A stretch of DNA of 64,000 nucleotides from an uncultured delta proteobacterium (lineage in GTDB: Bacteria > Myxococcota_A > Polyangia > Haliangiales > Haliangiaceae). The notes under the pieces were generated by a model. That model ran no database searches and was not told where the DNA came from. It saw nothing but the letters and a program-made list of their open reading frames with translations. Shown here piece by piece: positions 54,535 through 64,000 of this stretch. A program made the translations under genes and the position numbers. Every line of letters starts with the position of its first letter. Positions within the stretch are counted from its first letter, which is position 1. The stretch spans positions 261,470 through 325,469 of the forward strand of contig CAVZFC010000035.1 of the NCBI GenBank assembly GCA_963774445.1, written 5' to 3'.

Positions 54535-56142
54535 ATGCTCGACAAGGCCACGATTTGGCTCACTGCGGCACTGACCGCGCTGGTGCTGGTGCTTGCCCCC
54601 AACATCGCGCGCGCCGACGACGACATGACGTTCGAGGCCGACGAGGTCAAGAGCGGGCCGCCGTCCAAGACCCTCGAACGAGCGACCAAGCTCTACGACA
54701 AGGGTGACTACTACTCGGCGTCGATCGAGTTCTGGAAGGTCATCCAGAAGGAGACCGAGGACTCCGAGTCGAATCGCCAGCGGGCGCAGTTCTTCATGGG
54801 CAAGACCCTGTACCAGCTGGGCTACTACGCCGCCTCGCTGGCGCAGTTCGAGACCATCGTCAAGGCCGGCGACGCCCACCGCTACCACGGCGCCACGCTG
54901 AAGTGGCTGGCGGCGCTGTCTCGCGTGCTGCCCGAGACCTCCGGCATCCTCGAAAAGATCGGCACCTACGACGTGTCGGCGCTCGAGGATCCGATCATGT
55001 CGGAAGTGCGCGACGAGCTGTTCTACCTGCTCGGCCGCAACTACTACCGCAAGGCCAAGTTCGACCAGGCGATCGACCTGTTTCGCCGGGTCGATCGATC
55101 CAGCCCGTTCTACATCCGCGCCAAGTTCTTCGAAGGCGTTACCTTCGTGCGCAAGTACGAGGGCGCCCCGGCGGTCGAGGCGTTCAAGGAGATCCTGGTC
55201 ATCGGCGAGGAGAAGCCGAAGGAGTACTCCAAAGCCGAGATCGAGAAGTTTCAGGAGCTGGCCTGGCTGCAGCTGGCGCGCGTCTTCTACTCGACCCGCC
55301 AGTACGACACTTCGATCAAGTACTACGAGAAGCTCGACCAGAGCTCGCCCGACTGGGTCAACTCGCTGTTCGAGGCCTCGTGGGCCTACTTCATGAAGAC
55401 CAACAACTCGAAGGCGCTGGGTAACATCCACACGCTCAACGCGCCGTACTTCGAGAACCAGTTCTTCCCCGAGTCGATCCTGCTCAAGTCGGTCATCTAC
55501 TACAAGTATTGCCTGTACAACCGGGCGCTCGAGGCGGTGGCCGAGTACAACCTCAAGTTCAAGCCGCTGCGCGCGAACCTCAAAGAGATCATCTCGAAGA
55601 CCGACGACAACGCCGAGTTCTACGAGTACGTCATGAAGGTTCTCGACAACAAGGCCGGCCTCGACTCCGAGACCAATCGCCTGGTCACCAGCGTGCTCGG
55701 CGACAAGACCCTGCAGAAGACCTTCAACTGGGTCACCGAGCTGGGCAAAGAGCTCAAGATGCTCGACAAGGCCGACAAGGCCTGGCAGACCACCGCGGTC
55801 GCCAACGAGGTGCTCCAGCAGCTCACCTTGCAGGAGTCCCTGGCTCGCGCCGACGCCGGCAAGCTGGCGCGCGAGCGCATCCAGCGGCTCATGGACGAGC
55901 TCCGCGAGTGGAGCCGCGACGGCCTGAAGATCCGCATCCAGGTGCTCGAGGCCAAGGCCGGCAACGTGACGGCCGAGGCGCGCGGCGAGCAGATCTCCGG
56001 CTCACACAAGGAAGAGCCGATCATCGTTGACGATGAGCACTTCATGTGGAAGTTTAATGGGGAGTACTGGAAAGACGAGCTCGGGTTCTACCGGTTCCGT
56101 ATCCGCTCCAAGTGTGCGCAAAAGGGCGGTCGAGCACTGTAA
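54535..56142 (+). CDS. secreted TPR-repeat protein (GltC/NfsC-like)
   Basis: Signal peptide. Multiple TPR-like helical hairpins. Position upstream of a GltD-like gene. Confidence 0.55.
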   Translation: MLDKATIWLTAALTALVLVLAPNIARADDDMTFEADEVKSGPPSKTLERATKLYDKGDYYSASIEFWKVIQKETEDSESNRQRAQFFMGKTLYQLGYYAASLAQFETIVKAGDAHRYHGATLKWLAALSRVLPETSGILEKIGTYDVSALEDPIMSEVRDELFYLLGRNYYRKAKFDQAIDLFRRVDRSSPFYIRAKFFEGVTFVRKYEGAPAVEAFKEILVIGEEKPKEYSKAEIEKFQELAWLQLARVFYSTRQYDTSIKYYEKLDQSSPDWVNSLFEASWAYFMKTNNSKALGNIHTLNAPYFENQFFPESILLKSVIYYKYCLYNRALEAVAEYNLKFKPLRANLKEIISKTDDNAEFYEYVMKVLDNKAGLDSETNRLVTSVLGDKTLQKTFNWVTELGKELKMLDKADKAWQTTAVANEVLQQLTLQESLARADAGKLARERIQRLMDELREWSRDGLKIRIQVLEAKAGNVTAEARGEQISGSHKEEPIIVDDEHFMWKFNGEYWKDELGFYRFRIRSKCAQKGGRAL

Positions 56143-56358
56143 CCAGCCCTGAGCTCTTCACTGTCTACCGGCGCGTCGCCTCGCCCCAACCTGATGACGC
56201 CCAAGACAGGCACCAAAACCGCCGGCCACCGGCCGGCAAACCAGCACAACTCGTGTGAGAGCGACGTTTCCGCGGCCGCGTTCAGCCGGCTCACGGGCCG
56301 TCGCTCATTTCGTTTTCGGAGTCCCGCCAGGACAGAAGCGAGACAAGGGGAGAGAGCC

Positions 56359-61754: not shown

Positions 61755-61856
61755 TCCTCCCCGGGGACCTAGTCCTCGACCGAGATCGATTCGGGCCCAC
61801 CGGCTGCTGTTCGCGCACTGTCTTCCCAGACGAGAGATCGAGACGGAGCAACGAAC

Positions 61857-64000
61857 ATGGCCGGTGGAAAGATCCCCCTCACGTTCCAAATTTTCAAGGG
61901 CGACCAGCTCGTCCGCGAGGAGACGCTGACCCAACCGGTCATCAAGGTTGGCAAGCTCTCCTCGTCTCACCTGCGCCTCGATGACGACAGCGTCAGCCGC
62001 ATGCATGCGGTGATCGAGGTCTCGGGTGCTGACGACATCAGCATCATCGACCTGGGCTCGACGAAGGGCACCTTCGTCAACGGGCAGAAGGTCAACAAGG
62101 CCAAGCTCCAGTCCGGCGACGAAATCACCCTGGGTGACACGCGCATCGTCGTGAACGTCGGCGGCGCTGCCGACGACGCCGGCGATGACGAGCCGACCCG
62201 GGTGCAGGTGCAGGCCGCACCACCGGCGCAGGCCGACGTCATCGCATCGTCTCCGCCGCCGCCGATGGGCGCGCCGCCGATGGCCGCCTCTGCGCCGCCA
62301 CCGGTTGCCGCGCCGCCGCCCGTTGCCGCGCCGCCGCCTGTCGCCCCGCCGATGGCCGCGGCCGCGCCGCCGGTCGCGCCGCGGGGCATGGCGCCGCCGC
62401 CGGGCATGCCGGGTATGGTGCCGCCGCCGGGCATGGTGCCGCCGCCGGGCATGCCGGGCATGGCGCCGCCGCCGGGCATGGCGCCGGCACAATTCGGCTT
62501 CGATCCCATCGACGACATGACCGGCGCTCGCGCCATCGAGGTCGCGGCCATGCTGGGCGACTCGGTCGTCGGCGTGAAGCACGTGATGAACCCGCGCAGC
62601 GGCAAGGTGCAGCCGGTCACCTACCTGTTGTTCGGTCTGTGCAGCGCGCTGCTGCTCCTGGCGTTCATCGCCTTCGGCAAGGGGGTCTCGCTGGCCAAGG
62701 CCAACAAGGCCGCGCTGCACCACCACGTCGAAGTCCTCAAGCTGCCGTACCACGAGTTCCGTCCGATGCGGCAGAGCCCGATCTGGGACTTCCTCGCCTT
62801 CGGCGGCCTGATCGGCGGCATCACCTGCGGCACCTGGGGCCTGGTCCGGATGCGCAACGAGAAGGTGTCGCCGTTCTTCAAGATCGGCAGCGCCCCGGAC
62901 GTCAACTTCGCGACCGACGGCGCCGTGCCGACCGCGTCGTTCGCGCTGGTCGCGCCGTCGGGTGACGACTTCGTCTTCAACTTCGCGCAGGGCATGGAAG
63001 GCGAGATGATGCTCGGCTCCGAGTCCACGCCGCTCTCCGAGCTGGCGGGGCAGGGCCGCGCACGCCAGTCCACGTCTGCACTCGGTGCCCTCGAGGTGCC
63101 GATTCCCGACAAGGCGCGCATCCGCGTCAAGGCCGGCCACAACACCTTCATGGTGTCATCGGTCGCGCGGCCGCGCTCCAATCCGGCGCCGCTGTTTGCC
63201 GGGCTGTCGATGGCCGTCTTTGCCTTCTTTCTGGGCTCGGCCATCGTCCACTTCGGCTTCGTCGCGCTGCTCAACGCCATCCCGCCCGATCCCAAGTCGC
63301 TCGCCCTCGATCTGGGCAGCGGTGAGGGGCGCCGCACCCACGTCGAGTCCAAGGCCGAGGAAGAGAAGGTCGAGGACGAGGAAGACACGGTGGACAAGGA
63401 CTCCGACGAGGACGAGGGCGGCACCGGAACCGCCGAGGCCTTCGAAGAGGGCAAGATGGGCAAGGAGGACTCCGACCGCGAGAAGGGTCGCTACGCCATC
63501 GAGAACAAGGGCGTCCCGCCGCAGCTCGCGCGCAAGCAGGCCGTCAATCAGGCCCGTACCGAGGGCATCCTGGGCAGCGGCCTGCAGGAGCAGCTGACCA
63601 CCCTGACCGGCTCGGCCGACTTCAGCTCTGGTCTCGACGACCGCACCGTCTACGGCGGTCGCCTGGGCGACGAGGTCGGTGAGATGGCTGGCGGCTTCGG
63701 CACCGGCGCCTCGGGCTTCGGTCCCGGCGGTGGCGGCACCGGATTCGGCACCATCGGCTCCGGCCGGTACGGCACCATCGGCCACGGCTCGGGTACTGGC
63801 TCGGGCTACGGCTCGGGCTCCGGCCGCGGTGGCATGAAGGGCCGCCGGTCGGTGACCCCACAGGTGCGCATCGGCAACGCGACCGCGACCGGCGATCTCG
63901 ACAAGAACATCATCCGCCGGTACATCCGCCGCAAGCTGCCACGCATCAAATACTGCTACGAGAAGCAGCTCCTGGTGAACCAGGGCCTGCAGGGGACCGT
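61857..64000 (+). CDS. FHA-domain / Pro-rich / TM / TonB-C-like protein (GltG/PglI-like), partial, continues beyond window
   Basis: FHA domain (VIKVGKLSSSHLRLDDDSVSRMHAVIE...GSTKGTFVNGQKV). (PPG/PPVA)n linker. TM helices. C-terminal ...DLDKNIIRRYIRRKLPRIKYCYEKQ. Confidence 0.65.
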   Translation, partial: MAGGKIPLTFQIFKGDQLVREETLTQPVIKVGKLSSSHLRLDDDSVSRMHAVIEVSGADDISIIDLGSTKGTFVNGQKVNKAKLQSGDEITLGDTRIVVNVGGAADDAGDDEPTRVQVQAAPPAQADVIASSPPPPMGAPPMAASAPPPVAAPPPVAAPPPVAPPMAAAAPPVAPRGMAPPPGMPGMVPPPGMVPPPGMPGMAPPPGMAPAQFGFDPIDDMTGARAIEVAAMLGDSVVGVKHVMNPRSGKVQPVTYLLFGLCSALLLLAFIAFGKGVSLAKANKAALHHHVEVLKLPYHEFRPMRQSPIWDFLAFGGLIGGITCGTWGLVRMRNEKVSPFFKIGSAPDVNFATDGAVPTASFALVAPSGDDFVFNFAQGMEGEMMLGSESTPLSELAGQGRARQSTSALGALEVPIPDKARIRVKAGHNTFMVSSVARPRSNPAPLFAGLSMAVFAFFLGSAIVHFGFVALLNAIPPDPKSLALDLGSGEGRRTHVESKAEEEKVEDEEDTVDKDSDEDEGGTGTAEAFEEGKMGKEDSDREKGRYAIENKGVPPQLARKQAVNQARTEGILGSGLQEQLTTLTGSADFSSGLDDRTVYGGRLGDEVGEMAGGFGTGASGFGPGGGGTGFGTIGSGRYGTIGHGSGTGSGYGSGSGRGGMKGRRSVTPQVRIGNATATGDLDKNIIRRYIRRKLPRIKYCYEKQLLVNQGLQGT

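Follow-up and report, generated by a model that had tools for sequence, protein, structure and literature searches.

We analysed a window of 64,000 nt (64 kb) on contig CAVZFC010000035.1 of an uncultured myxobacterium. Among named genomes, its closest relatives are metagenome-assembled genomes (MAGs) of Kofleriaceae and Haliangium. The window has a GC content of approximately 70%, and its last part, positions 54535–64000, carries a gene block related to the gliding (Glt) and sporulation (Nfs) machines of Myxococcus xanthus. The plus strand of this region holds five consecutive open reading frames (ORFs), referred to as P1 to P5 (Table 1). A first-pass annotation, made from the DNA sequence, had described five co-directional genes of these sizes and features, and the ORFs are present at the positions that it gave. 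Pfam models locate tetratricopeptide repeats (TPR) in P1, P2 and P3.

The block had also been described as less GC-rich and as rich in lysine, which the gene counts bear out. The four complete genes have a GC content of 0.60–0.65 versus 0.66–0.72 in the other genes of the window, and lysine makes up 10.5% of their residues versus 3.4%. Third-position GC of the block genes is unchanged (0.87–0.94), and their lysine codons are mostly AAG (226 versus 11 AAA), so the dip in GC stems from the amino-acid content of native genes. We reject horizontal transfer as its cause, given this native third-position GC, the choice of lysine codons and the conserved housekeeping genes at the flank. An Rfam scan of positions 53300–64000 revealed nothing relevant.

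Table 1. Coordinates of the glt-like genes, the divergent lipoprotein gene and the regulatory motifs in the window, and of the motif before gltF in related loci (L numbers)
Feature	Sequence	Position	Strand	Description
P1, gltC-like	window	54535–56142	+	535 aa, secreted TPR protein
P2, gltD-like	window	56359–59940	+	1193 aa, secreted all-alpha TPR scaffold
P3, gltE-like	window	59958–61274	+	438 aa, TPR lipoprotein
P4, gltF (cglF)-like	window	61494–61754	+	86 aa, secreted protein
P5, gltG-like	window	61857–64000	+	714 aa, no stop codon; 3′ end beyond the window
Cys-rich lipoprotein gene	window	53714–54199	-	161 aa, lipobox Cys27 plus 14 invariant Cys; divergent from gltC
Sigma-70-like promoter, TTGACA-N18-GATGAT	window	54447–54476	+	10/12 consensus matches; 58 nt before gltC ATG
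Terminator-like hairpin	window	61284–61320	+	16-bp stem, then CTTTTTAAGTT; directly after gltE stop
GGAAC-N17-GTC motif	window	61415–61439	+	54 nt before gltF ATG
GGAAC-N17-GTC motif	L001	9586–9610		before gltF
GGAAC-N17-GTC motif	L002	8952–8976		before gltF
GGAAC-N17-GTC motif	L003	8826–8850		before gltF
GGAAC-N17-GTC motif	L004	8860–8884		before gltF
GGAAC-N17-GTC motif	L007	9581–9605		before gltF
GGAAC-N17-GTC motif	L008	9573–9597		before gltF
GGAAC-N17-GTC motif	L009	9541–9565		before gltF

Identity of the five proteins

In order to identify the proteins, we compared them with M. xanthus by way of curated hidden Markov models, protein sizes, gene order and published homologue tables. The curated NCBI models (NCBIfam) are built on Myxococcus proteins, and each has an equivalog cut-off in bits. 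P1 carries a type-I signal peptide (MLDKATIWLTAALTALVLVLAPNIARA) and matches the GltC model NF033756 with an E-value of 3.5e-93 and 313 bits (cut-off 450), its residues 17–529 aligning to positions 90–621 of 622. P3, with the lipobox VAAC, matches the GltE model NF033758 (E 1.1e-27, 97 bits, cut-off 225; residues 14–369 on model positions 5–338 of 411). P4 has a signal peptide and matches the CglF model NF033764 over nearly its whole length (E 7.6e-20, 70.8 bits, cut-off 90; residues 6–86 on 5–88 of 88), CglF being the same protein as GltF (PMC4488436). It also contains a strand-like stretch, T(V)YDF, that is conserved, and its C-terminal helix is amphipathic. Since every one of these scores, and that of P5 below, lies under its equivalog cut-off, P1, P3, P4 and P5 are distant homologues of the Myxococcus proteins.

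P5 matches the GltG model NF033760 with an E-value of 1.1e-86 and 292 bits (cut-off 650; residues 6–713 on 3–586 of 650). It begins with an FHA domain (PF00498, E 1.8e-18), and FHA domains in the PDB match the same stretch. A segment with 34% proline (residues 120–230) follows, then hydrophobic segments at approximately 251–282 and 444–476 with a weaker one at approximately 303–325, and finally a Glu/Asp-rich and a Gly-rich region. At residues 681–714 the AgmX/PglI C-terminal domain begins, of which 34 residues lie inside the window (NF033768, E 1.9e-5). In the closest related locus, L001, the gltG gene runs to approximately 770 aa, and the tail domain is complete in the orthologues of L001 and L002; the full-length L002 protein has the FHA domain and a weak TonB_C match (E 0.0017). 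The description of P5 as an FHA, proline-rich, transmembrane protein with a TonB-C-like end is thus borne out for the first three features, and its last domain lies only partly inside the window and is backed by the weak L002 match.

P2 is read from position 56359, where a signal peptide is present; a longer ORF from 56194 has none, and the homologues span 98–100% of the 1193-aa form. An alignment covering 99% of P2 shows 54% identity to an H. ochraceum protein of 1155 aa (P0025), whose neighbours are proteins of 560 and 441 aa. The genes next to P2 match these neighbours in size and sequence. The H. ochraceum trio is Hoch_2490, Hoch_2491 and Hoch_2492, which are tabulated as homologues of GltC, GltD and GltE, with Hoch_2491 corresponding to MXAN_4870/GltD (Luciano et al., 2011; PMC3169522, Table S3). 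P1 is 68% identical to the Hoch_2490 equivalent in an H. ochraceum-type contig (L014), and P3 is 53% identical to the Hoch_2492 equivalent.

The AlphaFold2 model of P2 (predicted local distance difference test score 81.7) is one continuous helical solenoid, and the only PDB folds that resemble it are giant TPR scaffolds of a generic kind, among them Ctr9, IFT-A and Ski3. Within NCBIfam, P2 matches only generic TPR, YbgF and BamD models. Eight other GltD-family proteins likewise match no GltD model, and NCBIfam apparently has none, so the missing match does not count against P2. An exhaustive search of representative sequences revealed 678 relatives of P2 at E ≤ 1e-30. Twenty representatives, taken by cluster, are all MAG entries named 'tetratricopeptide repeat protein', and a word-indexed search gave named matches only of Haliangium/Kofleriaceae-like origin. 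Taken together, the four near full-length matches to curated models, the identity between P2 and Hoch_2491, and the M. xanthus-like order and sizes uphold the reading of the block as GltC-D-E-F-G-like.

Genes downstream of gltG in related loci

Related loci show how such clusters continue. The closest of them, L001, belongs to a MAG of an uncultured 'delta proteobacterium', and 12.2 kb of it align collinearly with the window at a DNA identity of 90%; Kofleriaceae and Haliangium MAGs come next. In L001, L002, L005 and L007–L009, C-D-E-F-G is followed by a TPR lipoprotein of approximately 300 aa and a TPR protein of more than 2800 aa lacking a signal peptide. The two Haliangium sp. loci, L003 and L004, carry C-D-E-F-G and the TPR lipoprotein, then unrelated genes. 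In L001, the lipoprotein (positions 12401–13345, 314 aa) is of the Hoch_5625 type, and the giant gene, frameshifted in this long-read MAG, extends from 13556 to the end of the locus. The giant protein sits where the GltI homologues sce2920/2921 of Sorangium cellulosum sit and is GltI-like in position. The first-pass annotation had looked to gltH-, gltI- and gltJ-like genes past 64 kb; in the relatives, a giant protein that is GltI-like by position is present, the GltH β-barrel is not next after gltG, and GltJ was not seen.

In L014 (positions 13493–16018), the cluster stops after gltE with a terminator-like hairpin, and the genes beyond it encode a membrane protein, a small β-rich protein and a CLC channel, all unrelated.

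On another contig of the L001 MAG (L010, 8762–10657), we notice a lone gene whose 631-aa product has the AgmX/PglI C-terminal domain in full; its neighbours are dusB and a sigma-54 activator. The protein scores 86 bits with NF033768, 146 bits with the GltG model and 37 bits with the GltJ model, and it is possibly a GltJ-like partner encoded outside the cluster.

Upstream neighbourhood

Upstream of the block lie trmD, rplS and yraN (UPF0102), together with the divergent gene of the Cys-rich lipoprotein, and this arrangement is conserved throughout the related loci; rimM stands further upstream in the window and in L014. The conservation of this context from Haliangium to the window points to vertical inheritance of the cluster.

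The Cys-rich lipoprotein is found between yraN and gltC in every related locus. Its family has approximately 480 members, none annotated; the protein matches no Pfam or NCBIfam model, and its AlphaFold2 model matches no PDB fold. We cannot assign it as a Glt component: the whole trmD-rplS-yraN block travels along with it, so its adjacency to gltC proves nothing by itself.

Promoter-like motifs and possible transcription units

The intergenic region before gltC, announced as an AT-richer region of about 350 bp, measures 335 bp with a GC content of 0.606. The promoter-like motif expected there near position 54445 is found, followed by a GGGAGG ribosome-binding site 11 nt before the gltC ATG. L001, L002, L004 and L014 keep CTTGACA-N17/18-(G/C)ATGAT while the spacer sequence diverges. 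Conservation of the hexamers across four loci despite this divergence supports a genuine sigma-70-type promoter. On the minus strand, a divergent TTGACA-N16-TATGAT (54295–54268) faces the Cys-rich lipoprotein gene.

A second boundary is present between gltE and gltF. The hairpin behind gltE has a fold energy of -31.6 kcal/mol (z -3.3); L001 has the same hairpin with its T-run, and L002 and L014 have other hairpins at this place. Beyond it, the GGAAC-N17-GTC motif occurs once per locus in the seven related loci listed in Table 1, always just upstream of gltF, and in L006 (8663–8687) it stands ahead of a lone GltG paralogue. A scan of the 64-kb window with GGAACN15KTGTC gave one match versus 0.17 expected. 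We take GGAAC and GTC to resemble the -35 and -10 elements recognized by extracytoplasmic function (ECF) sigma factors, and from general knowledge of such promoters the motif is possibly an ECF-sigma-type promoter. A sigma-54 promoter was rejected by inspection, as no TTGC stands at the required spacing. In the literature, we found no paper tying glt genes to an ECF sigma factor.

The conservation and placement of the promoter motif, the hairpin and GGAAC-N17-GTC suggest two transcription units. One would comprise gltCDE, from the sigma-70-like promoter to the hairpin, and the other would start at GGAAC-N17-GTC and comprise gltFG onward. The boundary between gltE and gltF is the exact point at which the H. 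ochraceum cluster is split.

Comparison with known systems

We read the cluster as orthologous to Hoch_2490–2492 plus Hoch_5628–5625 and to sce2914–2921. In S. cellulosum So ce56, sce2914–2918 are GltC-D-E-F-G and sce2920/2921 are GltI homologues (Luciano et al., 2011; PMC3169522, Table S3), with 568, 1289, 497, 90 and 681 aa for GltC, GltD, GltE, GltF and the FHA-containing GltG, and 1774 and 2081 aa for GltI (PMC3169522). The window has the same order and similar sizes (535, 1193, 438, 86 and more than 714 aa). One unlisted gene separates the GltG and GltI homologues of S. cellulosum, where the relatives of the window have the TPR lipoprotein and then the giant TPR protein. S. cellulosum belongs to a different suborder, and the likeness is one of order and sizes.

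In H. ochraceum, the orthologous C, D and E genes have the same upstream context as in the window: rimM, trmD, rplS, yraN and the Cys-rich lipoprotein gene. The set, however, breaks off behind gltE, and the genes for F, G and the TPR lipoprotein (Hoch_5628, Hoch_5627 and Hoch_5625; PMC3169522, Table S3) lie elsewhere in the genome, whereas C to G are contiguous in the window. Contiguous C-D-E-F-G is also seen in Hoch_6494–6498 and Hoch_3960–3964 (PMC3169522). The adjacency of gltC to gltD-G, which had been singled out in the annotation, is therefore real and not new, as it is tabulated for these two sets and for sce2914–2918.

The Agl-Glt system of M. xanthus is encoded by two clusters, G1 with gltD–J (MXAN_4870–4862) and G2 with gltK-B-A-C (MXAN_2538–2541). 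It resembles the window in the D-E-F-G order, in sizes (GltD 1191, GltE 471, GltF 89 and GltG 640 aa), in domains (TPR, lipoprotein, FHA plus TonB-C-like) and in model matches. On the other hand, gltC belongs to the separate K-B-A-C cluster in M. xanthus, whereas it adjoins gltD in the window, with gltA, gltB and gltK not nearby. At the position of GltH, M. xanthus has a β-barrel and the relatives of the window have the TPR lipoprotein. Besides, the GltG of the window has extra hydrophobic segments before the last membrane helix.

The Nfs system of M. xanthus (nfsA–H, MXAN_3371–3378) shares with the window the contiguous C-D-E-F-G order and an FHA-type G protein, NfsG being an FHA/TonB protein of 682 aa. 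It differs in that nfsA and nfsB precede nfsC, nfsH follows and GltI is lacking, whereas the relatives of the window have a GltI-like protein downstream. We found no nfsA/B-like genes upstream of gltC in the window, where rimM, trmD, rplS, yraN and the Cys-rich lipoprotein gene are located. The glt and nfs genes are reported to have arisen by a recent duplication in a terminal branch (PMC3858216). The assignment to the Glt/Nfs type stands, while the choice between Glt and Nfs is not a real one, given this recent split, the absence of nfsA/B upstream and the GltI-like giant TPR protein downstream in the relatives. Our preferred reading is that the cluster represents the one Glt/Nfs-type system, still undivided, that myxobacteria have outside the Myxococcus suborder.

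Interpretation of the cluster

We think it likely that the proteins of the block form the core of a 'gliding transducer' of the Agl-Glt type, in its periplasm and inner membrane, and that the cluster is a vertically inherited, single-copy-type version, predating the glt/nfs duplication and organized in two transcription units. In the published model of M. xanthus GltCDEFGJ-AglRQS, GltD is a central periplasmic pillar wrapped by the periplasmic segment of GltG, whose TonB-C-like domain sits on the GltD N-terminus, while the C-terminus of GltD is the binding site of GltE. GltF contributes a strand to the tail of GltG, and its C-terminal helix sits in GltC. Contact with the AglR5QS proton motor is made by the membrane helix of GltG and the FHA-like domain beside it (PMC11761067).

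For the window proteins, homology to M. xanthus leads us to infer a similar mechanism. The inner-membrane GltG, with its FHA and TonB-C-like domains, would couple to a TolQR/ExbBD-like proton motor, AglRQS, encoded elsewhere, while its periplasmic part would wrap the giant TPR scaffold GltD. The lipoprotein GltE would dock on GltD, and the small GltF would bridge GltG, GltD and GltC, a role that the strand-like stretch and C-terminal helix of P4 would suit. GltC would tie the assembly to outer-membrane proteins, so that movement of the motor could reach the cell surface through the envelope. The purpose would most probably be gliding.

Several observations weigh against this interpretation. 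All four scores with the curated models stay below their equivalog cut-offs. There are three Glt-like sets in H. ochraceum, which means that some paralogues have other roles (PMC3169522). The GltH β-barrel is not next after gltG in L001–L005 and L007–L009, where the lipoprotein of approximately 300 aa, with only TPR matches, is found instead. Neither aglRQS nor gltA, gltB, gltK, gltH or gltJ was seen in the 64-kb window, and the promoter and terminator readings are drawn from sequence motifs only.

In a rather unlikely alternative, the block is a paralogous Glt-like envelope machine with a job other than motility, such as transport of polymer or surface cargo, comparable to Nfs and the spore coat, or a function like that of the G4 and G5 sets of M. 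xanthus (MXAN_1327–31 and MXAN_1919–23). Myxobacteria carry Glt-like sets in several copies: H. ochraceum has three and M. xanthus five. Nfs uses the same architecture for spore-coat assembly (PMC3858216). The window scores under the equivalog cut-offs fit such a paralogue, and no genes of an outer-membrane platform or adhesin were seen nearby. Against it, the GltG of the window is long and has an FHA domain, as do GltG and NfsG, and the relatives carry the giant signal-peptide-less TPR protein at the sce2920/2921 position, whereas Nfs lacks GltI. Moreover, nfsA/B-like genes are missing upstream, and the glt/nfs duplication is reported as recent and terminal (PMC3858216). We regard as unlikely a variant gliding transducer of Haliangium/Kofleriaceae-related myxobacteria, in which gltCDE would be under one control and gltFG-TPR lipoprotein-gltI under another, the latter through an ECF-type sigma factor at the strictly conserved GGAAC-N17-GTC. 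In it, the 14-Cys lipoprotein and the TPR lipoprotein would replace, as lineage-specific envelope parts, the Myxococcus outer-membrane components GltK and GltH.

Two further explanations invoke other systems. The Group B core complexes of non-gliding gammaproteobacteria and Geobacter have aglRQS embedded in the cluster and no gltF. The contiguity of gltC with gltD, gltE and gltG recalls such a minimal ancestral complex, yet the window has gltF and has no motor genes between gltE and gltG or anywhere in 54535–64000, and a GltI-like gene follows in the relatives. Since the core form has aglRQS inside and no gltF, we conclude that the cluster is not a minimal core complex; as an account of the block, that origin is very improbable. 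It is harder still to believe that the genes encode unrelated TPR proteins of a Tol-Pal- or BamD-type envelope system. A single TPR stretch of P2 and its relatives does give matches to the YbgF/CpoB and BamD models, and the JGI names of P2 homologues include 'TolA-binding protein'. However, these matches span approximately 100–170 of 1193 residues and remain well below the cut-offs (48 versus 90 and 49 versus 81 bits), and the four neighbouring genes match Glt-specific models with E-values down to 1e-93.

Other features of the window

Far from the block, on the minus strand at positions 6345–7950, a MotA/ExbB-like gene is followed by two genes for small single-pass proteins with ExbD-like N-termini. 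The MotA/ExbB-like gene (7399–7950) encodes a small membrane protein with only a weak match to PF01618 (E 0.0055). We could not assign these genes as AglRQS, as they have no confident family matches. The product of another minus-strand gene (2273–4780) is 835 aa long and carries an eCIS_core/DUF4157 domain at its N-terminus (PF13699, E 2e-20). On the plus strand, a lipoprotein-like ORF (23870–25141) ends in approximately 300 aa of a Cys/Pro/Asp repeat (CDPSDPNCPPPPPPC...PCGPDGSGCCDP...). It is followed by an ECF-sigma-like ORF (approximately 26374–26916) and an anti-sigma/TPR-like ORF (26787–28067).

Implications

Clusters of this type and with this gene order have been published before, and the current picture of gliding motility is unchanged. 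With the window, the known range of Agl-Glt-type machines grows by a further uncultured lineage. The conserved promoter-like motifs hint at how the two halves of the cluster may be regulated, and the family of the Cys-rich lipoprotein is a cheap candidate for a missing envelope component. The order C-D-E-F-G-(TPR lipoprotein)-GltI-like beside trmD-rplS is common to several lineages outside the Myxococcus suborder. This shared order agrees with published work in which the division into G1 and G2 clusters in Myxococcus is regarded as derived.

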